From: Clostridia bacterium
GTDB taxonomy: Bacteria > Bacillota > Clostridia > Christensenellales > UBA1242
Assembly (NCBI GenBank): GCA_045614835.1
Contig: JAZLDP010000004.1
Span: 1-48,139 of the forward strand
Direction: 5' to 3'
DNA: 48,139 nt
Below are positions 475 to 41,235 of the stretch, piece after piece (the first letter of the stretch is position 1; every line of letters begins with the position of its first letter). Below the pieces are notes generated by a model. That model was not told the origin of the DNA, did not search any database, and saw nothing but the letters and a program-made list of their open reading frames with translations. Both the position numbers and the translations under genes were made by a program.

Positions 475-3400
475 TTAGAAAAGAGATTCAAACAATTTTT
501 GCTTATTACTTTTAGACATTGGTAAGCTTTGAATATAAGCTTTAGCCTCAGACTTTTTCATACCTTTACAGTCAAAATAAGTGAAGAAAAAGTCATCATA
601 AGTTAAGGAAGAATTTCCTACTAAATTTGAAGCTTTTTCGAATAACTTAGTTGAGTGGAATTTAAGAGCAGTTTCCGCTCCAAAAGTAAGATATAGTCCG
701 TAGTAGTAATCATCATCGATAGAGTCTTCGGATAATTGAAGTTGGTTAAGATTACTTCCTAAAGCATCTACATTTTCATAAGCAGTTTTATACATATTAT
801 TTATTAATAATTGTATTGTTTTTAATTGTTGGTCTTTTTCGTTTTTAGAAAGTGAAGTGTCCTCCTCGATTTTTCTTTGTTCATCGTATAACTCAGATAT
901 TTTAGATTTAACTTTATTCATATATTTCACTTGAAGAGTAGCAACAGCATCTCCATCAGATTTTAAATATTGAAGCTTAGTTAATTTTTTACTAAAATCT
1001 TGATAATATTTAGTTTTATAAACTGGGTCAACGGTTAAATTAGATGAAACAAATGTTAAAGCATTAGTTTTACCATCTGAATTTGTTGCGGGGATAAGAA
1101 TATCTCCGATTACGCCTGAATATTGGTCAATAAGATAATCTATTTTTTTAGGAGAGTAATTAAATACCTTTCCCAAAGCTTTAGATATAGCTGAAGTAGA
1201 TTCATCATATCTGTCTGATGGTCTAATATTATCATATTTTGATGATTCTATTTGACCTCCATACCAAGTGGTATTAGTTTTTACATCATTTATTGGTGAT
1301 AATATAGTTCTAAAATCATTAACTGGTGATACAGCTTGAGAAACAGTTTCTCCATATCCTTCAAATGCTGTTTTATCGCCTTTTAACAAGTAATCAGCTG
1401 ATTTAGTTAAAGCACTTGATAATACAGTTATAACTCTTCCCTTAGGTATTTTAACGAATTTATCTCCAATTTTAATCAAATAGTTATTATCTCTATAATA
1501 ATCAGATAATCCTTGATATTCATCATCATCATAATAAACTATGTAATTAAATAACGAAGGAGTTAATCCTATTAATATAGCTCTAGCTAATAAAGATGCT
1601 AATTCTTTTAATGTTTTTCTAGAGAAAATAGTTCTGTATAATTTGACAAAACCTTGAACTTGGGCATTTAAGAAAGGCATTACAGTAGCATTTAAAGCTT
1701 TAGTAGCTTTTCCTGAACGACCAAAGTTAACAGTTATTTCTTGAGCATCATAAAAAGCTTCTTCATAAGATTTTCCATTTTCAAGAGATGAAATAAACTC
1801 AGCAATTCTTACAGATTGTTCAACAATCATATTAGCTCTAGCTATTTTATTTTTAACCTTTGATAATGCGTTTTTAGGATTTAATATATTAGGCTTTGAT
1901 AAAGGTTTATTAACGATAATTCCGTTATTAAAATCAAAGAAACTTGAATATAAACCGCCCATAGAACAATATCTTTGCCAAATTTCTCCATTTTTTAATA
2001 TTTCTTTAAAAGCTTTAGGCATATTTTTACTTAAAGATTTTATTCCGTTTTTAGAATACAATAACGCATCTTGAATATCTCTTGAAAAGTTTCGAATTAT
2101 GAAAAATGGGTTAAATTCAGTAGTAAATGCTTTAAATAATTTATTAGCTTTATTAATTGGCTTTAATATTAAATTATTTGAATAATCATTAACGCTTGAC
2201 AATGTGTTAAATCCTTCTAAAATTTCATTTGTTACTTCCATTGAAATTCGTTCTCCATTTTTATAGAAAGATACAACATTACCCTTTTCTCCTAAGTCTT
2301 CCTCAGTGTATTCATCAACAGTTTTTCTTATTTTAATTTGCTCTACGATTCTAACATCTTGATTTGAATCTTTATATTTAGAATTCATTTTTGCATCATA
2401 AATATCTTTAGCCATTTCATTTACTGCAATATTCTTATAAACACGCTTTAATTGGCTTGCAAATTGCTCGTGTAAAGGCTTTATTAATATATCACTACCT
2501 TTTGCTTTTTTAACTCCTGTAGAAACGTTTTTAGCACTACCAGCTACAGGTTTGCTTAATAATGTTGATTGGATTTCTCTTTCAGTAGGAACATAATGAG
2601 GATATATACTAGCCATTTCACGATATTGATTTACATCAATTAATCCTGCTTCTAATCTTAACCTGTTTAAAGCATCAGCAAATTGCCATACATCTTTAGC
2701 GTGTTCTTTAAATTCTGGATATTTTTTATCATATTCAGATATTATTTCTAAGCTATCTTTTGCAGTGACATCATTTCCAAATACAGGTTTCGGTTCTCTA
2801 AACACTTCTTTAAATTCATTAAATTGTTTTTCAGTCATAAAGCTTTTAAATTCTTCAATAGATAATGATTCTTGTTTAGAGTCGCTTATCTTTTTAATCA
2901 TTTTTGCTTTTTTATAATCGGTTAAAAAGTTTAATTTTTGAATATCATTAGCTGTAACTTTTTTGAATAAATTCATTCTATCTACATTATGGTTATGTAG
3001 TAAGTAATCATAGTATTCAGTTCTTTTTTGTTCAGTATCCATCCAATTAAAAATTTCATCGTAAGATTTTGATAAAACTTTATCGCCTTTTAAATTTCTT
3101 ATTCCGTTTTGTAAAGAATAATCAGCTCTATTTTTAAATCCTCTTAATAAATTAGCTTTAACTTCATAATTGTCTTTATTTTCAGTATATAACTTAATTA
3201 TGTTATTAACTCCAGCCATAGTATCGATTAAAGCAATTTTTGCTTGCTCAGTTCCCTTTTTAAAAGCATTGATTTTATTTTGATTTATTTGAGTAGTTAC
3301 CGTTTTTACTTTAGATAAAGTAGGACTTTTTACAGAATATCTTACATTTGATTTTTTGCTTTCAACAAACTTTAATAGCTTTTCTTCATTTTTTTTGTTT

Positions 3401-6400
3401 ATTGGAATTAATTGCTCTTTAAAAACAGGAACGTTTAACGATGTTGTTTTTGTGTTGTTAAATATTTGACCTTTTAATGTATTTGGAATTGTTTTTTCTG
3501 GATTGTATTTATCATAAGTTTCATAATAAGGGTCAATTAAAATTTGGACTTGAGTGTATCCCTCTTTCATTAAAGCATACATTCTATGTCTTCCTTCGTG
3601 TCCTTTTATTTTGCCTGATTGCATATCAATAACTAAATAAATAGAATCTCCTAATCGCATTGGCTTTGTTTTTAATTCTTCTAAATCTAATTTTCTTGTT
3701 TCATTTTTAAATTTTTCTTTATAAGAAGTAGGAACTGTTAATTCTAAAAATTCTTGTGGAGAAATGTAATAAGAAAAATATGTAGCGTAATCTTCATTAA
3801 ATTTTGTTGAACTTATATCTATAAATGATGACAATCTTTTTTCAGTAAAAGAAACTGTTTTTCCACTTTCTCTTAATTGTTTTAAATTATTATAACTGTT
3901 TTGATTTCTAGATAAAAATTCAGGACTTCTAAATCCTTTATCCTTATTTCTTTGATAAGAAGTTAAATTTTTATCTGATTTTTTCCTGTAATCTTCAATT
4001 ATTTTTTCCTCTATTTTAGCATCATTAATATTATTATAATTTAATTTTTCTATTACAAAATTTTCAAACTCTCTAAAACTATTTTCGTAAACTTTATCAT
4101 TATCAAATTTAACTAAATCTTTATAAGCTTGTTTAAAAGATTTTTCATCAATAATACTTTCTTTTAACATTTTTATTCCATATATTTCTTCATAATAATC
4201 AGTATTTTTATCTGAATCTTTTTTTATAGAGTATTTAGTTTTAAAAAAACTCATTTGATATTCTTTAGCTTCATCGTAACTATCTTTATCAAAAAATTTT
4301 GTTTCGACTTTTTTGTTTGTATTTACCATAAAAGCTACTTTAGGCATATTATGATTTTTAGCAATGTTATCGTGGTCATACTCCATATTATAATCCATTA
4401 ATGAAGCTGTTTTAAAATCAAAAATTAAATTATACATTTTTTGCAAATCTTGATTTACAGAAGCATAACAATCTAATGTTTTGGCTTTTTCTTTAACTAT
4501 TTGTGATATATTTGATAAAAATCCTCTTTTTCTACCACAATTAAAAACGCTTATTAAATCTCCATCATTAGTAATAGCAAAACCACTTAATCCATCATCG
4601 CTTAAATAACAAATTGAATCTTTATAATCATCGTGTAAATCTACTAATTCTCCATTTTCAGTATAATTTCTTGCTATTTCAAAAATATCGTGAAATAAAT
4701 CTCCATCAATATTTTCATATAAATTAAAATCTTTTAAATGTAATATCCTATTAGAGCTGGAGTTATAGCCTCTACTGTCCAACCTTCTTTTAAAAATTTC
4801 GGAAAGTCTTCGTTGTAATCTTTCATTATTCTTTGCGTAGATTCTTTGCTCACTACTTTTAGCAAATTCTTCTCTACTTTCTTCTTGAAGTCTTCTAAAT
4901 TCATTTTCTTCTCCTTTTAAACTTAATTTTTCTTTTTTGTTATTATCAGATTTAGCACTTTCGCTTTCTTTTAATAAACTTGTGAATATATTAAAACTTT
5001 CATTTATTGCTTTTTTGTATTCTTTTAATAACTTTTTATTACCTTTAAATTTGTCTAAATTCTCTTTTCTTTCTTTGAAAAAATCAACTAGCTTTTCTAA
5101 AGTATTTCTATTGTCTCCAACTAATTTTCTAGCTAAAGATTTATCTGAAAGCATATCTCCAAAAACATCAGCAAACATTTCTTGTTTAATATATTCATCT
5201 TGCTTTTCAACAGACATTTTCTTAAATGCATCTAATCCTTTTTCATTTGAGTTTAAATATAAATTCTTTTTAGCATCAAACTCTTTTTTAAACTCTTCAT
5301 TATTATTTTGGCTTTCAAAATAATTAGCAAAAACAAGTTCATATAATTTTTTTCCTTCAGCTGTATGAGTTAATTCGTGACCCGTTGTTTTAGCATATGC
5401 TTGCTTCCATAATTCTTCATTATTTAATGAATTACTTAAAGTTATAACATTACCTTTTACATATCCATTAACTGATTTTCTATTTGTGAAATTTAAACCA
5501 AAATTAGATGAGGTAATTTTATTTAAATTTCTAATCATTTCGCTAGCATAATCTTGCTTAGCCTTTGTTTCAGCATCAGCATTTAAATAACTTTTTTTGA
5601 ATGAGCCATCTTTGTTATATTTGTAATTTTGAGCAGTTCTATTAATATATTTTTTACGCTCTTCAACATCCATTGCTTTAACTTTTTCACTAATACTAGA
5701 CTCTAAATTGCTTAATCTACTAGATATTTTTTCTTTTTTTGATTCTTTAAGATTTTTATCTCTTATTTCGCTTTGTAATCTAGAAACTTCGGAAAGTTCA
5801 TTTTGTTCTAAAATTTCATTTATAGTTGTTCCTTTTTTAGATAATTCTTTTTCTATTTCAGAAGAAAATTCAGTTGTTTTAGAGTTTATTTCATTTGCTA
5901 ATTCATTAGCTTGTTCTAAATTGCCTTCTTCAACTTGTTTAATCATTTCATCTTGTAATTCAACTACATTTGAAGCTACTCGGCTTCCTTTAGATGTTAA
6001 AGCTACATTACCACCCATAATTACAGCACTACATAAAGCACCATTTAAACCAGCTTGTAAAACATTACCAACAAATTCATCGCTTTTATATTCTTCTAAT
6101 GCATCATCTTTATAAATAGATTTCATTAAAGGTTGTAATGATTCACTAACCATTTCTTCTACGCCTTCACCAGCCATATTTACTAATACTTTTGTAGCTG
6201 TACTTTTAGCCATTTTCATACTTAAATTAGGCATTAATTTAGTAATTTGTCCTTTTCCAAGACCACCTAATCCACCACTTAACATTTCAATAGCTGTTTC
6301 AACAGCTCCGTTAATAGTTCCGTATAATATTGCCTCATCTTTTGTTGCACCTTCTTGTAAAGCTTGTTCAGCACCACTTCCTCCAGCACTTAAACCAAAA

Positions 6401-6918
6401 GCAACAGTTCCAGCAGTTCCTCCAGTAGCAACATTCAATGCTATCGATGGTAGCATTTGACCAACGTTTACTAAAACATCGCTAACAATAGAATCTTCTG
6501 AATAAAAAGAATCTTTATGAGCAGATGTTTTAACATCTCCTAATAATTCTTTTGTCCAATCTTTTTCAACAAAATCTGTAATTGTATCTCCTTTGTCTAA
6601 TTTAGAAATTAATATACCACCAGCATCAATTATACCTTCAACTCCTTTTGAAGCACCGTATAACACATCAGCTCCAGCTGAAGCAACAGTTTTTATTATT
6701 TTTGTGAATACATCAGCATCTTCATCAATAATTTGACCTTCTTCATTTGTTATATCTGGTAAAATGTTTTCGTATTGCTGTTTTTGATTATATGTAGAAA
6801 TGGGGTTAGCTTGATTACTAACCCCTTTATTATCTAAAATAGTAGGTTCTTGTCTTTTAGATTGATATTTTTCTAACAAAGAATTGTCTTTTTTATATTT
6901 TTCTAAAATACTAGCCAT
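475..6918 (-). CDS. giant multidomain polyvalent virion protein (probable internal/ejected protein)
   Basis: 2147-aa uninterrupted ORF with an AGGAGG SD. Gly/Ala-rich hydrophobic tape-measure-like segments at aa ~70-310. Zincin motif HELTH at aa 514-518 (nt 5365-5379). GNAT-like block including GFAITNDGDLISVFN at aa ~725-865. ParB/Srx-like GHEGRHR at aa 1106-1112 (nt 3583-3603). About 950-aa C-terminal module of unknown fold. Last gene of the strand. Confidence 0.6.
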   Translation of the reverse strand: MASILEKYKKDNSLLEKYQSKRQEPTILDNKGVSNQANPISTYNQKQQYENILPDITNEEGQIIDEDADVFTKIIKTVASAGADVLYGASKGVEGIIDAGGILISKLDKGDTITDFVEKDWTKELLGDVKTSAHKDSFYSEDSIVSDVLVNVGQMLPSIALNVATGGTAGTVAFGLSAGGSGAEQALQEGATKDEAILYGTINGAVETAIEMLSGGLGGLGKGQITKLMPNLSMKMAKSTATKVLVNMAGEGVEEMVSESLQPLMKSIYKDDALEEYKSDEFVGNVLQAGLNGALCSAVIMGGNVALTSKGSRVASNVVELQDEMIKQVEEGNLEQANELANEINSKTTEFSSEIEKELSKKGTTINEILEQNELSEVSRLQSEIRDKNLKESKKEKISSRLSNLESSISEKVKAMDVEERKKYINRTAQNYKYNKDGSFKKSYLNADAETKAKQDYASEMIRNLNKITSSNFGLNFTNRKSVNGYVKGNVITLSNSLNNEELWKQAYAKTTGHELTHTAEGKKLYELVFANYFESQNNNEEFKKEFDAKKNLYLNSNEKGLDAFKKMSVEKQDEYIKQEMFADVFGDMLSDKSLARKLVGDNRNTLEKLVDFFKERKENLDKFKGNKKLLKEYKKAINESFNIFTSLLKESESAKSDNNKKEKLSLKGEENEFRRLQEESREEFAKSSEQRIYAKNNERLQRRLSEIFKRRLDSRGYNSSSNRILHLKDFNLYENIDGDLFHDIFEIARNYTENGELVDLHDDYKDSICYLSDDGLSGFAITNDGDLISVFNCGRKRGFLSNISQIVKEKAKTLDCYASVNQDLQKMYNLIFDFKTASLMDYNMEYDHDNIAKNHNMPKVAFMVNTNKKVETKFFDKDSYDEAKEYQMSFFKTKYSIKKDSDKNTDYYEEIYGIKMLKESIIDEKSFKQAYKDLVKFDNDKVYENSFREFENFVIEKLNYNNINDAKIEEKIIEDYRKKSDKNLTSYQRNKDKGFRSPEFLSRNQNSYNNLKQLRESGKTVSFTEKRLSSFIDISSTKFNEDYATYFSYYISPQEFLELTVPTSYKEKFKNETRKLDLEELKTKPMRLGDSIYLVIDMQSGKIKGHEGRHRMYALMKEGYTQVQILIDPYYETYDKYNPEKTIPNTLKGQIFNNTKTTSLNVPVFKEQLIPINKKNEEKLLKFVESKKSNVRYSVKSPTLSKVKTVTTQINQNKINAFKKGTEQAKIALIDTMAGVNNIIKLYTENKDNYEVKANLLRGFKNRADYSLQNGIRNLKGDKVLSKSYDEIFNWMDTEQKRTEYYDYLLHNHNVDRMNLFKKVTANDIQKLNFLTDYKKAKMIKKISDSKQESLSIEEFKSFMTEKQFNEFKEVFREPKPVFGNDVTAKDSLEIISEYDKKYPEFKEHAKDVWQFADALNRLRLEAGLIDVNQYREMASIYPHYVPTEREIQSTLLSKPVAGSAKNVSTGVKKAKGSDILIKPLHEQFASQLKRVYKNIAVNEMAKDIYDAKMNSKYKDSNQDVRIVEQIKIRKTVDEYTEEDLGEKGNVVSFYKNGERISMEVTNEILEGFNTLSSVNDYSNNLILKPINKANKLFKAFTTEFNPFFIIRNFSRDIQDALLYSKNGIKSLSKNMPKAFKEILKNGEIWQRYCSMGGLYSSFFDFNNGIIVNKPLSKPNILNPKNALSKVKNKIARANMIVEQSVRIAEFISSLENGKSYEEAFYDAQEITVNFGRSGKATKALNATVMPFLNAQVQGFVKLYRTIFSRKTLKELASLLARAILIGLTPSLFNYIVYYDDDEYQGLSDYYRDNNYLIKIGDKFVKIPKGRVITVLSSALTKSADYLLKGDKTAFEGYGETVSQAVSPVNDFRTILSPINDVKTNTTWYGGQIESSKYDNIRPSDRYDESTSAISKALGKVFNYSPKKIDYLIDQYSGVIGDILIPATNSDGKTNALTFVSSNLTVDPVYKTKYYQDFSKKLTKLQYLKSDGDAVATLQVKYMNKVKSKISELYDEQRKIEEDTSLSKNEKDQQLKTIQLLINNMYKTAYENVDALGSNLNQLQLSEDSIDDDYYYGLYLTFGAETALKFHSTKLFEKASNLVGNSSLTYDDFFFTYFDCKGMKKSEAKAYIQSLPMSKSNKQKLFESLF

Positions 6919-10221: not shown

Positions 10222-10584
10222 TTAAACAATCCAAAAATCTGTTATTATTTCGTTGCTACAATCCCATATATCTTCTATTGTTCCAAAGATAGAAACAGAT
10301 AAATGTCCATCCATACGAAGTAATAATATATTATTAGGAAAGTCTTCAGCAACTTCTTTAGCTGTTCTTCCATTACCAATATAATGAGGTAAACAAAAAT
10401 CATAATCTAAAAGCTTTTCGTAGCATCTTACTGATAAATCATCGCATTTAAATATCTCTCCGTTAATATGCAAATGTTTCATAACATCATAGTATGTTAT
10501 TCCCATTGCATTAGATATTGCTCTTATTACGCAATCTGGAATGTGATAACCGTTTGGATTAGCGTTATAATACCTATAAGGCAT
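10222..10584 (-). CDS. Tae4-like / NlpC-P60-superfamily Cys-His cell-wall amidase candidate (possible lysin)
   Basis: 120-aa ORF. PDCVIRAISNAMG (Cys box), MDGHLSVSIFG (His box), IWDCSNE and C-terminal FWIV resemble, from memory, the Cys/His/Asp arrangement of type VI amidase effector 4 proteins. Confidence 0.4.
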   Translation of the reverse strand: MPYRYYNANPNGYHIPDCVIRAISNAMGITYYDVMKHLHINGEIFKCDDLSVRCYEKLLDYDFCLPHYIGNGRTAKEVAEDFPNNILLLRMDGHLSVSIFGTIEDIWDCSNEIITDFWIV

Positions 10585-10586
10585 AA

Positions 10587-11252
10587 TTAATCTTTTTTAC
10601 CACCTTTTACAACTTCGCAATAATATGCTAATAACTTATCAGTTCCTTTATATTCAGAATCTTTATCCTCTAACCATTGTTTTGCTAATATCATATACGC
10701 TTGAGGAGAGCTTAAAAAATCAGCTTTAAAATCGCTCATAAGCATTAAGTATGTATAATAAAAGAGTTCTTCATCATAATCATTAAAGCTAACTCCCATT
10801 TGTTTTGCTTGTTTAATAACTTCTTCTTCTGGCATATTAAATAAAGCTTTTTGTTTTAATTTATGACTCCATTCCTTTAATTTATGCATATATTCTTTTT
10901 CTTTTTCTTTTAAATTACCGTTTGAGTAATCTCTTATAGCATTAGAATATCCATCGTTATAACCATCATTATAATCAAATGGTTTCATCATATTTGAAGA
11001 ATTAGGCATATATCTTGGATATTGTCCATATTGTTGACCCATACCAAAGTTGTGGCTATCCATTGATTGGTAATCGTTTCGGCTATCGTATCCACTATCA
11101 TATTTTGCATAATCATTTCCGTAATCGCCCATATCTCTCCCTCTTCCTCTTCGGTTGTCATTAGAATCTACATAACCACCTTTAGAACCGTAAGGGTTTC
11201 TGTAATCATTTTGAGAAGACTCAGTTAATTTCTTTTGTAAGTATTTATTCAT
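10587..11252 (-). CDS. hypothetical protein with a ~110-aa D/Y/G/N/R-rich low-complexity N-terminus and a helical C-terminal domain
   Basis: 221-aa ORF with an AAGGGGG SD; the N-terminal half is repetitive (GYVDSNDNRRGRGRDMGDYGNDYAKYDSGYDSRNDY...DYNDGYNDGYSN). Confidence 0.8.
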   Translation of the reverse strand: MNKYLQKKLTESSQNDYRNPYGSKGGYVDSNDNRRGRGRDMGDYGNDYAKYDSGYDSRNDYQSMDSHNFGMGQQYGQYPRYMPNSSNMMKPFDYNDGYNDGYSNAIRDYSNGNLKEKEKEYMHKLKEWSHKLKQKALFNMPEEEVIKQAKQMGVSFNDYDEELFYYTYLMLMSDFKADFLSSPQAYMILAKQWLEDKDSEYKGTDKLLAYYCEVVKGGKKD

Positions 11253-11255
11253 AAA

Positions 11256-11699
11256 CTAAACCCCCTTAAAAACATTTAATATTACATTTGTAACAGTAGA
11301 AGCCACACCTACATTAGCAATGCTTAATGTTTCAGCTACATTTGTAACACTATTTAAAACTAAATCTTTATCGGCTAATACATAATAATCTAATGTTACT
11401 GTATGGAATTCTGTTGTAGCAGTTGCAACAGATTCAGTTACAGTTGCACCAGCAATACCTACACCGTTTTCGAATAATTGAAATGTAACATCCCCAGTGG
11501 CTGGAGCAGTAAATGTAATAGTAGCTGTCACCTTATAAATGCCAGATTGTTGAATAATTAAGTCTGTGTTATTGCTTTCAAAAGCTCTTAATCCACAAGA
11601 ACCTTTCTTATCAAATCTACGGTAAACACTACCAAAATTAATAAAATCGCCTACAGCTAAAGCTTGGCTTGTTGTGTTTTTTAAACCAATTAAATACAT
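11256..11699 (-). CDS. BclA C-terminal / C1q-TNF-like jelly-roll protein (fibre-tip or head-fibre candidate)
   Basis: The start is trimmed to ATG 11699 (SD AAGGAGAAAC) because the 22 upstream codons of the track ORF overlap terminator 11733-11770. The beta-rich pattern SGIYKVTATITFTAPATGDVTFQLFENG...LSIANVGVASTVTNVILNV resembles exosporium BclA C-terminal domains. Confidence 0.45.
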   Translation of the reverse strand: MYLIGLKNTTSQALAVGDFINFGSVYRRFDKKGSCGLRAFESNNTDLIIQQSGIYKVTATITFTAPATGDVTFQLFENGVGIAGATVTESVATATTEFHTVTLDYYVLADKDLVLNSVTNVAETLSIANVGVASTVTNVILNVFKGV

Positions 11700-11732
11700 A
11701 TAATGTTTCTCCTTCTTGAAAAAATTGATTTT

Positions 11733-11770
11733 AAAAAAAAGGGCAATGGAGATTATTTCTCTCAATGCCC
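11733..11770 (-). terminator. rho-independent terminator
   Basis: the minus strand reads GGGCATTGAGAG-aaataa-TCTCCATTGCCC (about 10 bp, one mismatch, one bulge) followed by TTTTTTTT. Confidence 0.55.
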
Positions 11771-11818
11771 TAAGGATATTTTAATCTCCTATGTTAATGA
11801 TAGTTAATCACTTATTAA

Positions 11819-12475
11819 TTAAAGAATTGATACACCGTTATTAGTGTAGCAACAATTTGGGTTAGGTACGATATAAGCAGGTTTTGGACAAGCAGGTGCT
11901 AAAGCATTAATGATATATGCAGATTGAGCATCATTAGAAATTCTTCCCTTTAATGCAACATTCTCAGCTCTTAAAGCTTCAATCTTATCGCTTGTGTAAA
12001 TGTCAACTAAACGTTGATTTCCAGCATTAATAGCAGTTATGATATCACAAGTTTGCTTTTCATTGGCATATCTTACATCAGAAATTGCACTCTTTAATTC
12101 ACAGCAACAATTAGCTAAGTTATAACCAGCTTGAGCAAACCCTCTTTCTGTAGCATTAGCACTTTGTAAAATAGCTGTGTTTAATCCGCTAAATCCTTGA
12201 TTGATGAAATTTTGCATTGTAGCTTGACCTAAAATGATTGAATTTAAATCACTCATAATTTCTGATGTGCTAAAGCCACTAGCTAAATCTTGAGTTGTAG
12301 CATATCCGCCTCTTTGACCGTTTCCACCGAATCCCCAGCCACCATTACCAAACAATGAAGCAACGATTAGAAGACCAATTAAGCCTCCCCATTCGCCTCC
12401 CCACATTCCGTTGTTGTTGTATCCGTTAGTATCTCTACCAACAGCATAACCTTCAGCAAATGAATTTGTTTGCAT
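11819..12475 (-). CDS. Gly/Trp-rich membrane-anchored protein with a Cys-rich C-terminal domain
   Basis: 218-aa ORF with an AAAGGAG SD; GMWGGEWGGLIGLLIVASLFGNGGWGFGGNGQRGG; later NCCCELK, QTCD, APACPKP and NPNCCY. Confidence 0.8.
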   Translation of the reverse strand: MQTNSFAEGYAVGRDTNGYNNNGMWGGEWGGLIGLLIVASLFGNGGWGFGGNGQRGGYATTQDLASGFSTSEIMSDLNSIILGQATMQNFINQGFSGLNTAILQSANATERGFAQAGYNLANCCCELKSAISDVRYANEKQTCDIITAINAGNQRLVDIYTSDKIEALRAENVALKGRISNDAQSAYIINALAPACPKPAYIVPNPNCCYTNNGVSIL

Positions 12476-12588
12476 AGATAAAATCTCCTTTCATTAGATA
12501 AAATTTATTTATATTAAAAACACTTTTATTTAAACTTCGCTAATTGCTATCTAGAATTAATTAGCTCTTATTTAAAACTAAAGTATTG

Positions 12589-12831
12589 TTAATATCTCTG
12601 ATTAGCAACGTTAATCATTTGGTCAAAAACATTGCTTACTCTATCTATTGGAATATTATTTTGTCTTGCGTATTGAATAACAAAATCTTTGGGACTTAAA
12701 CCACTTGTCATCATTTGATTGTAAGTTACTTGTAAATTAGGATTTTGTTGTAAAATATAATTTATAGCATTTTGTGGAGTAGCATAACTATTTATTATGC
12801 CTCTTAATTGATTCATAACTTTTCCATTCAT
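12589..12831 (-). CDS. hypothetical protein
   Basis: 80-aa ORF; ATG 12831 preceded by GAAGGAG. Confidence 0.75.
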   Translation of the reverse strand: MNGKVMNQLRGIINSYATPQNAINYILQQNPNLQVTYNQMMTSGLSPKDFVIQYARQNNIPIDRVSNVFDQMINVANQRY

Positions 12832-12833
12832 AA

Positions 12834-13262
12834 TTAATTAACTCCTTCAAAATTGCCCGAATTTTGCCCTGTAATCGTTTTTTCGATTTTTTCGGTTAAA
12901 TTGTTAAGCCTTGAACTAAAGCTGTTTACAAACGAATTTAATTCTTCTTTAGTAGCATACATTTCTTCCTTAATATGTCCTTGTTCATCATACTCAACAG
13001 CTTTAATTTTAAATGTTTTCAAACTAGGCTTGCCTAAATTATCAGCACTCTTTACATAAAGCGTGTTACTATCATCATCAATTAAATAGTAAGTTTGATT
13101 AGGATTTACTATGAAAGCTTTTGCTCCTTCAATTCCGTTTACAAAAGTTAATGGTAAATACTTTTGTGTTGGTTGTTGAACTGGTTGTTGGTATATCGGT
13201 TGTTGATAACTTCCGTAACCTCCTCCATAAGGATTTTGATAATTTTGATAACTGTAATTCAT
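12834..13262 (-). CDS. hypothetical protein with a Y/Q/G/P-rich N-terminus, beta-rich core and coiled-coil tail
   Basis: 142-aa ORF with an AAGGAGG SD; N-terminus MNYSYQNYQNPYGGGYGSYQQPIYQQPVQQPTQ. Confidence 0.8.
   Translation of the reverse strand: MNYSYQNYQNPYGGGYGSYQQPIYQQPVQQPTQKYLPLTFVNGIEGAKAFIVNPNQTYYLIDDDSNTLYVKSADNLGKPSLKTFKIKAVEYDEQGHIKEEMYATKEELNSFVNSFSSRLNNLTEKIEKTITGQNSGNFEGVN
12849..12881 (-). repeat. S element copy embedded in the 3' end of CDS 12834..13262
   Basis: the minus strand reads AAAACGATTACAGGGCAAAATTCGGGCAATTTT and runs into GAAGGAG-TTAATTAATT-ATG of the next gene; aligns with 45664-45691. Confidence 0.7.
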
Positions 13263-13288
13263 AATCTTAAATTGCCTCCTTAAAAAGA

Positions 13289-13456
13289 TTATTTTTCAAA
13301 TTCGATGATATATTCAATAAGGCTTTTTAAATCGCCTTGTATATCCTTTTTATTAAGCATATCATTGTAAATCTTCTTAGCATTATCTTCACTGATGTTA
13401 TATTTTAAAAATAAATATTCAATAATTACTTGTTCCATATCGAGATTATATGACAT
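13289..13456 (-). CDS. hypothetical small helical protein
   Basis: 55 aa from ATG 13456 (the track ORF starts at TTG 13480); no convincing SD for any candidate start. Confidence 0.4.
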   Translation of the reverse strand: MSYNLDMEQVIIEYLFLKYNISEDNAKKIYNDMLNKKDIQGDLKSLIEYIIEFEK

Positions 13457-13492
13457 AACTTTTACTACAGTTATACTCAAATTTATGACAAT

Positions 13493-13522
13493 AAAAAAAA
13501 TGAACCGTTATTTAAACGGCTC
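13493..13522 (-). terminator. rho-independent terminator overlapping the stop of CDS 13508..14716
   Basis: the minus strand reads GAGCCGTT-taaat-AACGGTTC (8 bp including one G-U) followed by ATTTTTTTT. Confidence 0.55.
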
Positions 13523-14716
13523 ATCTTTTAATACTTGTTTAATTTTTTGTTTACTTCGATAAATAGATTGATTTGCTGTTTGATAATCGATATATTCAAT
13601 ATCAGCTATCTCTTGTAAAGTTTTACGCTCAATATATTTTAAAACCATTCTATTAGTGGCTTGCTCAGTTAAGCCAGCTATATCACATAGTTTTATTAAA
13701 TCTTCTTTAAGCATACCTTTTCTTAGTGTGATTCCATCATAATTAGTATAGTTCATATAACAATACATTACATACATCATATAAGCAACTAAGCAACCTA
13801 TAAGAATATTACATAATACTGAAATGTATAAAGGTAACGATAATCTTGTAGCAGTAACAAAAATTAAAACAGCTAATGTGGTACATACTAACACGCTATC
13901 TGAATGATAACTTTTACCGTAAACCTGTCTCATAAATACAAACGAAATAAAAATCAGCAAATACTCTAAAATAACATTATTTACAAAATAGCATATCGTA
14001 CCTACTAAGAATAACTGAGTTATAGATAGCATTACAATAAATATTTTGTAACCAAGTTCAACCTCTACTTTTTGAACATTTTCTTGATTTTGTTGTACAT
14101 TTTCTTTAAAGCTGTTTCGCTTGGAAAGAAAAACCAACTTGGTCTTCCATCGTTCATACAATGACACTCCTTTCTTTAATTCTCTTAACAATGTTAATGT
14201 TAATAATATGTAATAATCTATTTGTAAAATAGATTCTACTCTAAAATCTACGTTTCTAATATCAGTGTTTATATTTTTATAAAACATAGTTAATAACTGA
14301 TATATAGAAACAATAATAGATACTACCACACAATCAAACAAAATTTCTTTTAAAGTTAATTTTGAAAAGCATCGTATAATGATTACATAAATTGAAAAAT
14401 CAACAATTAAGAAATAAGGTGATTTTAAATTAAAAGTTATTAAATAATCAAATATATTTAATAATATTATTACCAATAACTCTTTTAGTTTAACAAATCT
14501 TTTTAATATAATCAATGACATAAATATGCCATTTAAAATAAATAAAGATAAATTAATAACTACACGAAATGTATAATTTAAACTTACCACTTTATCGGGT
14601 ATTTCAAACTCTTTAAAACCTAGAAACTTTAATAAAGAACAAAGTATAACGGTGAACCAAAAGAGCTGAATAAGTCTGTCGTAAACAAACTCTTTATTGA
14701 TTTTCTTTATATTCAC
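13508..14716 (-). CDS. polytopic membrane protein (about 10 TM) fused to a C-terminal sigma-70 region-4-type HTH
   Basis: 402-aa ORF, GTG start with an AGAGGAAG SD. Hydrophobic helices run through aa ~15-320. The C-terminus LTEQATNRMVLKYIERKTLQEIADIEYIDYQTANQSIYRSKQKIKQVL fits the sigma r4 / ECF-LuxR HTH pattern. Confidence 0.55.
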   Translation of the reverse strand: MNIKKINKEFVYDRLIQLFWFTVILCSLLKFLGFKEFEIPDKVVSLNYTFRVVINLSLFILNGIFMSLIILKRFVKLKELLVIILLNIFDYLITFNLKSPYFLIVDFSIYVIIIRCFSKLTLKEILFDCVVVSIIVSIYQLLTMFYKNINTDIRNVDFRVESILQIDYYILLTLTLLRELKKGVSLYERWKTKLVFLSKRNSFKENVQQNQENVQKVEVELGYKIFIVMLSITQLFLVGTICYFVNNVILEYLLIFISFVFMRQVYGKSYHSDSVLVCTTLAVLIFVTATRLSLPLYISVLCNILIGCLVAYMMYVMYCYMNYTNYDGITLRKGMLKEDLIKLCDIAGLTEQATNRMVLKYIERKTLQEIADIEYIDYQTANQSIYRSKQKIKQVLKDEPFK

Positions 14717-15125
14717 TTGCTTCTTCCTCTACTTCTTTATAATATTTAGGCAAATCAACTCTAGGAGTATTATTGTAACTGTAATCAATTCCTAAATATA
14801 TTTTATTTCCCATTTCAAAACCATCGTGAATTCTAACAAACTTTTTGCCTGTGTATAAGTTTTCTTTATTTAAGCATATATCAAAAGCTTCTTCATTTAC
14901 AACACCAGCTATTATTACATTATTTTTAACGATAATTTCACATTTAAGCCCATCATCAATTTCAATAAACATTTCAGGCGTTTCATTATCTTTTAACGTA
15001 TAACAAACACCTAATTTTTCTGCATCGGTAATGCGTTGAAGCTGATACCCTGTATTACAAGGCATCAACTCCAATGCTTTTTCATTAGTCAAACCTGCAT
15101 ATAAAGTTTTATTAATTATAATCAT
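14694..15125 (-). CDS. hypothetical protein
   Basis: 143-aa ORF with an AAAGGAAA SD. Confidence 0.8.
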   Translation of the reverse strand: MIIINKTLYAGLTNEKALELMPCNTGYQLQRITDAEKLGVCYTLKDNETPEMFIEIDDGLKCEIIVKNNVIIAGVVNEEAFDICLNKENLYTGKKFVRIHDGFEMGNKIYLGIDYSYNNTPRVDLPKYYKEVEEEASEYKENQ

Positions 15126-31547: not shown

Positions 31548-31943
31548 TTATACTTCATTCACATCAATTTCTCCGTTAACATTTACATATTGACCTTGTT
31601 TATTTTGATAATAAACACTTTTAGCAGAAATATAAACAAAATCTCTTAGTTTTCTGGTTGAATAATCTGTGTATCTTTTATTAATTAAAGAACCACAAAC
31701 TATTATTAGCGTTCCTCTTTTTAAAGTTTTAGCCATATAGTTAGCTAATTTATTATAAGCTTTTATTCTAAACATCATACAGTTTTTTACAAAAACTATT
31801 GGTCTATCTTTTGAAGGTTTTGGCTGTATAGGTGGAGTATATAAAGTAAAATATACATAATCGCATTTGTTTTCTTCATCATATTTTAAATATAAATCTG
31901 TAGCACAATAACCTTGAACTTCTACCTGATTAAAATATCTCAT
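31548..31943 (-). CDS. second SSB-like OB-fold protein, no acidic tail
   Basis: The pattern NQVEVQGY...FRIKAYNKLANYMAKTLKRGTLIIVCGSLINKRYTD fits an SSB OB-fold. Start set at ATG 31943, 4 nt after the upstream stop; the track ORF starts at TTG 31976. Confidence 0.45.
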   Translation of the reverse strand: MRYFNQVEVQGYCATDLYLKYDEENKCDYVYFTLYTPPIQPKPSKDRPIVFVKNCMMFRIKAYNKLANYMAKTLKRGTLIIVCGSLINKRYTDYSTRKLRDFVYISAKSVYYQNKQGQYVNVNGEIDVNEV

Positions 31944-31947
31944 ATAT

Positions 31948-32211
31948 TTACAGCATCCTTTCTTTAGTCCTTTCAATTTTTTCTTGAATTTTTAAGTTTA
32001 AGTCATAATTGCTAATTTTAAATAAGTATTGCATTTGACAAAGCATAATATAAACATCAGCTAATTCTTCGGTAATGTTTTCTATATTAGTTTTGTCCCT
32101 TAAATGCTTACATAATTCCTTTTGCAATTCGCTTAATTCTTCAATAGCAACTATAACTTGCTTATCACCATATTTTTCAATCAACAATTCAAATATTTCA
32201 TTATTGCTCAT
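31948..32211 (-). CDS. MazG-like nucleotide pyrophosphohydrolase (small all-alpha type)
   Basis: 87 aa; EELSELQKEL and EELADVYIML match the paired EExxE / ExxD metal-binding helices. Confidence 0.6.
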   Translation of the reverse strand: MSNNEIFELLIEKYGDKQVIVAIEELSELQKELCKHLRDKTNIENITEELADVYIMLCQMQYLFKISNYDLNLKIQEKIERTKERML

Positions 32212-32539
32212 ATTTTTTGTTCCTCTTTACTTTCTTTAAGTTATTTTTAATCATATATTTTCTTAATGTAAATGTTGATACATTTAGTATTGAATGAACT
32301 TGCTTTAATGTTAGGTTTTTATCGTTCAACAATTTTTCAATATAATCTTTATCAATGCTATCTAGTATAGGTTTAGGACCTTTTCCTTTTTGAAACTTTT
32401 CACTATGACCTATTTCTCTTAATCTGTTTCTTATAGTTTTACTGCTTACAAAATATTTTTCTGCAATTTCATTTAGAGTTTTTTTATCTATAAAAAACAT
32501 TTTTTCTATTTCTTTAATAGGCAATTCAATTCTTTTCAT
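32201..32539 (-). CDS. putative DNA-binding protein with two HTH-like segments
   Basis: 112 aa; LNEIAEKYFVSSKTIRNRLREIG and LKQVHSILNVSTFTLRKYMIKN. Confidence 0.45.
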   Translation of the reverse strand: MKRIELPIKEIEKMFFIDKKTLNEIAEKYFVSSKTIRNRLREIGHSEKFQKGKGPKPILDSIDKDYIEKLLNDKNLTLKQVHSILNVSTFTLRKYMIKNNLKKVKRNKKYEQ

Positions 32540-33049
32540 TTATTCTCCTTTGCAACTAAACATTTCAGCACATTTTCCATTTCTATAAACACACAAAGGA
32601 ACTAACACATCTTTCATATATGGAGCTACTTCAATTACTTTATTACAAATTTCTTTCATCACTGCTCTAGTTTCTTTACTTGCTTGTTTGCATAAACGTT
32701 TATGCGACATAAATATTAATTCTTGAGCATTAACACTTAGTATATGACTTACCATTTGTCCTTGTGGCAATTCATTTCTATCAACACCTGTTCTATCAGT
32801 TCTTTGAGTTTGAACATAATGATTCACTCCAATATGGTGGCGAACAAAATGAACACTTACCCAATATGGAATTTCCATTTTTATTCCAAACCATAATTCC
32901 CTAATCGGACTATGTTCAGATTCTACTAAACGTTTAATCCATTCTTCATTCGGCAATTTAGTTGTAGTCTTTCCAACAGTATTTAAAGTGCATTGTTTAC
33001 ACCACAACAAATCTTTTTCACTTGGATATTTTAACAATTCTACTTTCAT
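32540..33049 (-). CDS. divergent ThyX-like (FAD-dependent thymidylate synthase fold) protein
   Basis: Start trimmed to ATG 33049 (SD AAGGAG). ESEHSPIRELWFGIKMEIPYWVSVHFVRHHIGVNHYVQTQR parallels the ThyX H-SP-lE ... RHRxxS...SxR region, but reads RHH and is about 50 aa shorter than typical ThyX. Confidence 0.45.
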   Translation of the reverse strand: MKVELLKYPSEKDLLWCKQCTLNTVGKTTTKLPNEEWIKRLVESEHSPIRELWFGIKMEIPYWVSVHFVRHHIGVNHYVQTQRTDRTGVDRNELPQGQMVSHILSVNAQELIFMSHKRLCKQASKETRAVMKEICNKVIEVAPYMKDVLVPLCVYRNGKCAEMFSCKGE

Positions 33050-33050
33050 A

Positions 33051-33371
33051 TTAATTAAACTCCTTATCTTCAATTACTATTTCAGTATAAACAAAATTAT
33101 TTTCACTAACAGACATTATTCTTTCAGTGTAATGTTCTCCATCGTAAAATTTAACAATGCAAGCATATTTAATATGCTCTTGTGCATTTGGCAATTCTTC
33201 AATAGTGTAAGTATATACTTTACTGTCATATATTTCAACCAATTCTTCAATGATTAGATTTTTATTTATTATTTCTTTTCTTTCTCTTTCAACAGTAATT
33301 AAATTATTTATAGACAAAAAACCTAAAACAACTGCCATAAATATAACTAATCTATATAAGCCTTTACTCAT
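33051..33371 (-). CDS. hypothetical membrane-anchored protein
   Basis: 106 aa; N-terminal TM LYRLVIFMAVVLGFLSI. Confidence 0.75.
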   Translation of the reverse strand: MSKGLYRLVIFMAVVLGFLSINNLITVERERKEIINKNLIIEELVEIYDSKVYTYTIEELPNAQEHIKYACIVKFYDGEHYTERIMSVSENNFVYTEIVIEDKEFN

Positions 33372-40803: not shown

Positions 40804-41235
40804 TTAAAATGGAAAATCATCATTTTTTATATCAAAAGGAGAATCATTCGCATCAAATTGTCTTACAACTTTGTCTTCTTCTATTGTTCTTCCACCCATA
40901 AAATCTGATGGAGTTTCTTCGATTAAATTAGTAGAGCCAAACGTTTCGCACTTTTCAACCAAAACAAATAAATTATTTTTTTTCGTTCCGTTAGATGATG
41001 TATAGTTTTCTTGGTCTAAATGACCGCAAATCATAATTTTATCTCCTTTTTTAAGATAAGGATAAAATAGTTTTTCAGCTAAACTACCAAAAACTTTAAA
41101 AGGAATAAAAATAGTTTTATTTTTTGCTACAAGAGGATTACAAGCAATTACATTATTAACATAACTTATTTTCCCATCGTTAGAAACCAGCTTAACATCG
41201 TAAACTATTCTTCCAGTAAGCACAACGTTTGTCAT
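40804..41235 (-). CDS. ssb: single-stranded DNA-binding protein
   Basis: 143 aa; N-terminal MTNVVLTGRIV OB-fold start; C-terminal acidic tip DIKNDDFPF. Confidence 0.75.
   Translation of the reverse strand: MTNVVLTGRIVYDVKLVSNDGKISYVNNVIACNPLVAKNKTIFIPFKVFGSLAEKLFYPYLKKGDKIMICGHLDQENYTSSNGTKKNNLFVLVEKCETFGSTNLIEETPSDFMGGRTIEEDKVVRQFDANDSPFDIKNDDFPF

Follow-up and report, generated by a model that had tools for sequence, protein, structure and literature searches.

The peptidase AgrB (MEROPS family C75), the maker of staphylococcal quorum-sensing peptides, is a polytopic membrane protein of the agr systems of low-GC Gram-positive bacteria, and the canonical versions compared in this study are single-domain proteins of ~190-215 aa. 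Residues R70, G75, H77 and C84, situated at the cytoplasmic end of helices 2 and 3, are required for AgrB proteolysis, and K129-131 mutants retain peptidase activity yet make no autoinducing peptide (AIP) (PMC10196373). Phages may also carry agr genes: agr3 of the Clostridium difficile phage phiCDHM1 comprises agrD, agrB and agrC beside the endolysin, and genes of a similar kind are present in the Paenibacillus phages Davies, Emery and Abouo (PMC3901668). In these phage cassettes an AgrD pre-peptide and an AgrC-like kinase accompany an ordinary AgrB, of 197 aa in phiCDHM1, and the genes are recent acquisitions from the host (PMC3901668). Here we analyze a gene from a 48,139-nucleotide stretch of DNA (contig JAZLDP010000004.1, filed under Clostridia bacterium; the whole stretch is called the window below), whose 402-aa product joins a six-helix membrane domain and an AgrB-type peptidase core to a C-terminal helix-turn-helix (HTH) domain resembling region 4 of sigma-70 factors. 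No description of an AgrB-HTH fusion was found in the literature searched.

Two further kinds of system are, by function, the closest analogies to such a fusion. Membrane-integrated one-component regulators, like ToxR, CadC and BcrR, have a tethered cytoplasmic DNA-binding domain, and their targets are often direct repeats at the promoter next to their own gene. Their DNA-binding domains are OmpR-type winged helices or XRE-type HTHs located at the N-terminus, and they possess one or few transmembrane (TM) helices and no peptidase core, whereas the HTH of the present fusion is C-terminal and resembles sigma region 4. In SpoIVFB/pro-sigma-K, SpoIIGA/pro-sigma-E and BlaR1/BlaI, on the other hand, a membrane protease is paired with a sigma factor or HTH protein whose activity is governed by cleavage at the membrane. 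These proteases are metallo- or aspartic enzymes, whereas the fusion would, by analogy with AgrB, be a Cys/His peptidase; the substrate is a separate polypeptide in all three pairs, and that of the sporulation pairs is a complete sigma factor, as against the region-4-only domain of the fusion.

The open reading frame (ORF) encoding the fusion is a real, conserved gene and no chance ORF. A word-indexed search recovered 61 homologues with E-values of 1e-58 to 1e-244, nearly all of 390-405 aa and all from metagenome assemblies, and when 1.84 billion representatives were searched exhaustively with a profile, the family grew to 637 clusters (E<=1e-3, counted at 50% identity), of which 236 reached E<=1e-10. 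Alignment places the N-terminus of the 402-aa protein in line with those of its homologues, and there is an overlap of 23 nt with the ORF upstream. An earlier description of this DNA, made by a model from the letters and a list of ORFs without database searches (the sequence-only reading), had called attention to the GTG start and to a terminator overlapping the stop codon, and both are borne out by the sequence; hairpins followed by a T-run number 2 in 3 kb, against 0.5 expected.

The central result concerns the last four membrane helices, TM7-10. The Pfam AgrB profile (PF04647) matched aa 213-320 with 30.4 bits against a curated cut-off of 23 (E 2.9e-7), and was matched by 29 of 30 relatives (best E 3.8e-10). 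Six agrB genes annotated in S. aureus, Clostridium and Latilactobacillus plasmid records served as a reference set; an annotated autoinducer-peptide gene lies directly beside agrB in four of these six loci, and a fifth has one nearby on the opposite strand. In hhalign comparisons against the annotated AgrBs, the whole protein gave an E-value of 8e-5 and the 4-TM module alone one of 1e-5 (probability 82%), the module being aligned to residues 15-121 of S. aureus AgrB (WP_001105707.1). This alignment makes R263, H271 and C278 the register equivalents of S. aureus R70, H77 and C84. Conservation was counted on 206 retrieved family members, 189 of which were aligned at these three positions: the His and Cys counts are given in Table 1, and the position of R263 is occupied by Arg or Lys in 169. 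The His and Cys are seven residues apart, and the catalytic loop is predicted to be cytoplasmic.

Beyond this core the likeness to AgrB ends. Positions 123-185 of the Pfam profile are unmatched, and the family alignment stops at the YAPADT motif of AgrB, with the HTH coming next; the K129-131 loop and TM5-6 of AgrB are absent, and the HTH stands in their place. At the level of sequence comparison, homology of TM7-10 to the catalytic two-thirds of AgrB (its TM1-4), with the Arg, His and Cys kept, is strongly supported. Relative to AgrB the protein has gained the six-TM N-terminal domain and the HTH, and adjacent agrD, agrC and agrA genes are lacking. Since it agrees with AgrB in profile and catalytic residues, but not in six-TM architecture or agr partners, we consider it an AgrB-family derivative and not an AgrB orthologue. 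The membrane part had been taken for an anonymous "sensor-like" domain, a view that has to be given up for the helices beside the HTH, which correspond to the AgrB cysteine peptidase core.

Hydropathy and an AlphaFold2 (AF2) model of the 402-aa protein (mean per-residue confidence, pLDDT, 75; predicted template modelling score, pTM, 0.64) agree on ten membrane helices, at ~aa 10-31, 48-70, 77-96, 101-117, 124-146, 160-181, 221-244, 248-265, 274-293 and 299-321, consistent with the polytopic protein of ~10 TM helices with an HTH that the sequence-only reading had proposed. Its picture of a first ~320 aa made almost entirely of hydrophobic helices needs amendment: the ten helices are present, but they form two modules, a 6-TM module (aa 10-181) and a 4-TM module (aa 221-321), parted by the Lys/Arg-rich linker of ~40 aa. 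Across 126 full-length relatives, with the C-terminal domain excluded, predicted-inside loops carry on average 16.6 Lys plus Arg residues and predicted-outside loops 2.7. The protein is accordingly predicted to be N-in/C-in, and this charge bias places the HTH in the cytoplasm; a C-terminus outside it had been named as the result that would speak against a DNA-binding role.

The N-terminal domain has no Pfam match. Its outside loop GYKEFEIP is conserved, as are the polar residues N62, E128, Q140 and D167 within the membrane, the last of these being kept in 159 of 168 sequences. In Clostridium estertheticum plasmids (L007 and L008; such labels denote the loci compared) agrB is flanked by a gene for a CPBP-family intramembrane protease, a layout that echoes the MroQ/AgrB partnership of S. 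aureus (PMC10196373), and for this reason the phage N-domain was also compared with CPBP. Derivation of the N-domain from a duplicated or permuted part of AgrB, or from a CPBP/MroQ-like protease, was ruled out (hhalign E 0.25-0.37), and hhalign detected no kinship between it and the 4-TM module of the fusion itself.

The C-terminal ~70 aa, in which the sequence-only reading had seen a region-4-type HTH, do receive profile and structural support. Individual matches of the window protein stay below threshold, both to Pfam Sigma70_r4_2 (E 0.016) and to the region-4 end of the NCBIfam sigma70-ECF and SigW models (E 1.6e-4 to 5e-4); PHROG sigma-factor families are matched as well. Among 30 relatives, nine match Sigma70_r4 and six Sigma70_r4_2, with a best E-value of 3.9e-7. 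The family consensus shows the usual region-4 pattern together with a Lys/Arg-rich recognition helix. In the AF2 model the tail has pLDDT values of 82-91, and Foldseek superposes it on region 4 of SigR, SigD, SigE, SigC and SigF with target-normalised TM-scores of 0.72-0.78 and root-mean-square deviations of 1.3-2.5 A over 57-66 residues. When Foldseek was run against the PDB the HTH alone matched; when the PDB sequences were searched with the profile of the family, weak HTH matches were all that came up, and no AgrB structure was among them. Pfam and NCBIfam detected no sigma region 2 in the 402-aa protein, in which only membrane helices or linker lie upstream of aa 325; nor was a region-2 protein found among the other window ORFs scanned (~55 in all, with Pfam or PHROGs, not all of them by Pfam). 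Lacking region 2, the protein is not a sigma factor.

The three modules are combined in several ways. Among the 206 members, 128 contain all three, 35 consist of core and HTH (~180-200 aa), 13 of the N-domain only, and 13 of N-domain and core without HTH. A split form is found in L012 (6319..7588) and L014 (6321..7573), where a gene for a polytopic membrane protein of 204-205 aa lies directly upstream of one for a 190-195-aa core-plus-HTH protein; the upstream product has the ...ID-x-Y... motif in common with the N-domain, yet stays below detection by the hidden Markov model (HMM), and the pair is preceded by a holin-like membrane protein of 144-159 aa. An HTH-less member, in L017, is a complete 325-aa protein of N-domain and core that ends at a true stop codon and scores above the Pfam AgrB threshold. 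To judge from such truncated, split and HTH-less members, N-domain and peptidase core form the conserved unit, with the HTH as a frequent add-on.

Nearly all members are metagenomic, mostly from gut phage contigs, and the sequence was found in gut metagenomes, often bovine. The sequence-only reading had recommended a search for homologous fusions in phage databases; 50,697 phage records yielded nothing (tblastn of the protein, megablast of the fibre gene), and the family has no characterised phage relative. A scan of IMG/VR likewise gave no relative, and the GTDB species genomes yielded a single family match, on a 55-kb contig binned with an Anaeroplasmataceae metagenome-assembled genome (MAG). 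One full-length member, P0219 (L018 7001..8221, MAG GCA_947627975.1), is encoded on a Firmicute chromosome with His, Cys and HTH intact; it is flanked by spoIID, an M23 peptidase gene and spoIIID on one side and by csp, hpf and secA on the other, with no phage genes within 7 kb. With spoIIID as a neighbour, this chromosomal copy hints at a connection with sporulation. The UniProt/BFVD entry A0A8S5R960, "Accessory gene regulator B [virus sp. cti5L29]" (429 aa), matches the fusion structurally over its full length (Foldseek E 1.8e-9, 442 aligned columns, TM-score ~0.5, 16% identity), and is on this ground a distant member of the fusion family, present in public databases under an automatic name taken from one of its domains.

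Table 1. Features of the fusion gene and of the region that follows it in the window
Feature	Position	Strand	Remarks
Fusion gene	13508..14716	-	402 aa, GTG start; 6-TM N-domain, cytoplasmic linker, 4-TM AgrB-type core, sigma-region-4-like HTH
Shine-Dalgarno sequence AGAGGA	14725..14730	-	8 nt 5' of the GTG start (14714..14716); read from sequence
N-terminal 6-TM domain, aa 1-182	14171..14716	-	family match: none
Lys/Arg-rich linker, aa 183-220 (~40 aa), predicted cytoplasmic	14057..14170	-	low model confidence
AgrB-type core, aa 221-323 (TM7-10)	13748..14056	-	Pfam AgrB profile positions 12-122 of 185
His271 codon (= S. aureus His77)	13904..13906	-	His in 188/189 aligned relatives
Cys278 codon (= S. 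aureus Cys84, catalytic nucleophile)	13883..13885	-	Cys in 189/189 aligned relatives
Tether from TM10 to HTH, aa 324-336	13709..13747	-	family consensus
Sigma-70 region-4-like four-helix HTH, aa 337-398, predicted cytoplasmic	13523..13708	-	profiles, AF2 fold, topology
Intrinsic-terminator-like 15-pair hairpin and T-run	13495..13529	-	covers the stop codon of the fusion gene
Three TGT[CA][AG]TA copies	13484..13490, 13463..13469, 13449..13455	-	just after the terminator, before the block; candidate operator
TATAAT box	13445..13450	-	candidate promoter
Downstream block	10222..13480	-	63-aa ORF; 142-aa, 80-aa, 218-aa, 169-aa, 221-aa and 120-aa proteins
63-aa ORF, first after the candidate promoter	13289..13480	-	no family match; not AgrD-like

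The window is the genome of a tailed phage (27% GC) with all genes on one strand, and encodes a DnaD-like replisome organiser, a single-stranded DNA-binding protein (SSB), a RecE-like exonuclease, TerL, a portal protein, a major head protein and a 2047-aa LRR_5 fibre. Its TerL is at best 35% identical to a known one (Roseobacter phage CRP-7). The fusion gene comes next after the tail-fibre genes, in the virion module, as the sequence-only reading had stated, and related contigs of 44-81 kb show the same succession of fibre, fusion gene and a block of small genes. The conserved part of the block (10222..13262, minus strand) was also found in L001, L003, L004, L005, L012, L014, L019 and L020, and in 8 of 10 loci its genes, including those designated c and f, accompany the fusion gene, down to protein identities of ~22-27% (BLAST) and despite rearrangement; in L019 they lie on the strand opposite to the fusion gene. 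Its products include a Q/Y-rich 142-aa protein (phrog_21718), an 80-aa protein, a 218-aa protein (phrog_16490) that starts with a Gly-rich TM segment, contains a CCC motif and a coiled coil and ends in a conserved PAYVVPNPNCCY-x(3-12) tail, a BclA_C-like 169-aa protein, a 221-aa protein rich in R, D, Y and G, and a 120-aa protein (phrog_3754), a composition that recalls spore-coat or exosporium proteins. At the place of the 63-aa ORF that heads the block, ORFs of 49-80 aa were found in L003, L005, L019 and L022, and none in L001 or L004.

Several other genes of the window deserve mention. The 2147-aa protein encoded at 475..6918 (minus strand) contains the Pfam domain LPD38 (large polyvalent protein associated domain 38; E 9e-35) and matches giant PHROG families; giants of 1293 to 7822 aa occupy its position in related loci, and it may be a polyvalent protein delivered with the virion. 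The regions 31548..33073 and 40804..41235 (minus strand) supply two SSB-family genes, a 177-aa ORF whose match to ThyX (Thy1) is confined to the C-terminal end of that protein, and a gene for a 112-aa protein in which two HTH motifs were seen, one DeoR-type and one just below the Sigma70_r4 threshold. TerL is directly preceded by a 150-aa ORF, and the gene for the 112-aa protein lies ~730 nt upstream of the latter. Among the scanned window ORFs neither an endolysin nor a clear holin was recognised, and the host may be a wall-less gut Mollicute; more distant relatives in other phages (L019) do have a holin and an Amidase_2 endolysin.

Beyond the terminator lie three short repeats and a promoter-like box (Table 1), the repeat cluster being unique within the 48-kb window. 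A genome-wide look at direct repeats gave chance-level AT-rich matches only. A hairpin with a T-run ends the gene in the phage loci read, though it is weaker in L003 and L004; most loci have short repeats within ~60 nt of the gene end, and most also a TATAAT-like box before the next gene. The type of repeat appears to go with the subtype of the recognition helix: 1) helix QS-x-YRS-K/R with TGTC(A/T)ATA in the window, L001/L002 and L021; 2) helix SIKSS-x-RRSRK with (A)TGCAC in L005, L015 and L022; 3) helix S-x-D/E-N/S-V/I-x-K with TTTACA(C/A) in L003, L004, L016, L023 and, loosely, L020; 4) the helix of L024 with TTTGTC in that locus. We treat this apparent tracking of HTH subtype by repeat type as a lead and not as a result.

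Our preferred, though tentative, reading is that the fusion is a membrane-integrated regulator of the adjacent block, made of one polypeptide and equipped with a peptidase as its input module; we would not give it an even chance. The gene would be the last of a fibre or late transcription unit, its product would insert into the membrane, and the HTH would bind the short repeats just past the gene's own terminator and thereby control the promoter of the accessory block at 13480..10222. With the target adjoining its own gene, a membrane-tethered factor could easily reach the repeats. The input would come from the peptidase core and the N-domain, which would either process a membrane-associated peptide or protein or clip the HTH from its tether. 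Binding of the HTH at the repeats, for which the subtype-specific repeats beside the gene give indirect support, likewise falls short of an even chance when taken by itself.

Several observations weigh against this regulatory reading. 1) The helix-subtype groups mirror general relatedness, with protein identities of 43-65% inside them and 36-50% between them, so that their association with repeat type is confounded by phylogeny. 2) An unbiased test, which compared the longest exact direct repeat at 9-14 nt spacing with all sequence windows of the same locus, was significant in 4 of 13 loci, with a combined p of ~0.03 for loci that are related and non-independent. 3) The recognition helices of L012 and L014 are near-identical, and their downstream motifs are different. 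4) TTTACA could simply be the -35 element of host sigma-A. 5) L017, which has no HTH, and the chromosomal copy of L018, which has no block, show that neither of the two is needed for the function of the core. 6) The AF2 confidence is low around the catalytic loop. 7) The tether, with the consensus GIT-I/L-x-K/R-G-M-S/T-K/E-E-E/D-L, lacks a Pro/acidic motif like that of the AgrD tail, which argues against self-cleavage in the style of AgrD; together with the coiled coil of ~70 aa that is inserted in the tether of the relative P0200, this also speaks against a fixed geometry for cleavage in cis.

The last point bears on the suggestion of the sequence-only reading that the C-terminus might be a sequestered sigma fragment freed by proteolysis. 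The idea has become more concrete insofar as a protease core sits in the same polypeptide, but the linker has no cleavage or recognition motif like that of AgrD, and we consider proteolytic release of the HTH unlikely. Free-standing homologues of the HTH were considered as a possible sign of release; the candidates proved to be contig-end fragments or chimeras. Sensing of envelope state or of superinfection, which had been offered as the role of the protein, is supported by no result obtained. A more elaborate version, in which the 6-TM domain with its conserved extracellular loop would sense an outside cue or peptide, the AgrB-type peptidase cleave at the inner face, and the region-4 domain thus be freed or activated to switch on the block, would amount to a self-contained phage signalling device, made of one polypeptide or, in the split forms, of two, and strikes us as far-fetched.

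The alternative that fares best is that the fusion is first of all a peptide-signal enzyme. Its core would mature or destroy a signal of the cyclic-peptide type derived from a precursor encoded elsewhere, either a host AgrD or an unrecognised phage peptide, so that the phage would make, mimic or jam agr-type quorum sensing, with the HTH as a secondary module for feedback or localisation. The AgrB family has been characterised for no function other than AgrD processing, the fusion retains the catalytic residues, agr-carrying phages are known, with the phiCDHM1 cassette adjoining lysis genes, and the present family occupies fibre/lysis junctions, a frequent home of accessory genes. The AgrB region tied to AIP formation after cleavage is missing, however, and the partners were not found. 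An HMM built from five annotated AgrD peptides detected no AgrD in 2408 six-frame segments of at least 20 aa from the window, L001, L003, L004 and L005 (best E 0.21, zero motif matches), a search of limited sensitivity that leaves the absence unproven, as AgrD peptides are very divergent and a five-sequence HMM is weak. As for AgrC and AgrA, no HATPase, histidine kinase or LytTR match was obtained among the window ORFs scanned. Two sets of small ORFs were considered as AgrD candidates and rejected: the ORF upstream of the fusion gene (143 aa in the window) is not conserved and matches only L003, and the downstream ORFs of 49-80 aa are present in some loci only and have no BLAST or Pfam relatives. 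With no AgrD, AgrC or AgrA found, the locus is not an agr circuit, and in contrast to the phage agr cassettes the present family is a three-module fusion without partners that extends over hundreds of clusters. We rate this alternative as doubtful.

A non-regulatory role in the membrane, such as lysis timing, membrane remodelling or superinfection exclusion, appears improbable. In that case the HTH would serve only to hold DNA of phage or host at the membrane, in the manner of phi29 p16.7, or would bind RNA polymerase or an anti-sigma factor instead of a promoter. The DNA-binding domain of p16.7 is homeodomain-like, and weak PDB sequence matches of the fusion were to homeodomains. The setting of the gene is also suggestive: it directly follows a Dp1-type holin and the Amidase_2 endolysin in L019 and small holin-like membrane proteins in L012/L014 and L017, the window has no recognisable lysin among the ORFs scanned, and the HTH is dispensable in some members. 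Against this, the His/Cys dyad is invariant, which favors catalysis over a mere pore or anchor, the recognition helix varies in a subtype-specific manner, as in sequence-specific binders, and neither Pfam nor PHROG gave a holin-family match. The least satisfactory alternative, that the core is a maturation peptidase clipping a membrane-anchored block product such as the 218-aa protein, would account for the co-occurrence of genes c and f with the fusion gene and draws on a loose parallel between this candidate, with its membrane anchor and conserved Cys-containing motif near the C-terminus, and AgrD, which has a membrane-binding N-terminus and loses its C-terminal tail, but the tail motif is unlike the AgrD recognition tail, the block is absent around the HTH-less L017 and the chromosomal L018, and the co-occurrence may reflect shared descent only, so that we think it most improbable.

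The AgrB-family core as such is known, whereas its three-module fusion with an HTH is widespread and unstudied. A core hitherto known only from the making of autoinducing peptides is here joined to a DNA-binding domain and a novel membrane domain, in an architecture that is spread over hundreds of clusters, mostly from contigs of uncultured gut phages, and has a place on at least one Firmicute chromosome. The family also supplies natural truncation, fusion and split variants of AgrB, for which no high-resolution structure was available as of 2023 (PMC10196373). If the HTH is controlled by the peptidase, the fusion would represent a new phage route from membrane events to transcription, and the self-contained signalling device, if real, would give gut phages a new class of regulated-proteolysis switch or a communication system derived from agr. 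Among Clostridia, quorum sensing reportedly promotes sporulation in C. difficile (Agr1) and toxin production in C. perfringens; should the enzyme act on AgrD-type peptides of the host, the family would represent a widespread interference of phages with quorum sensing.

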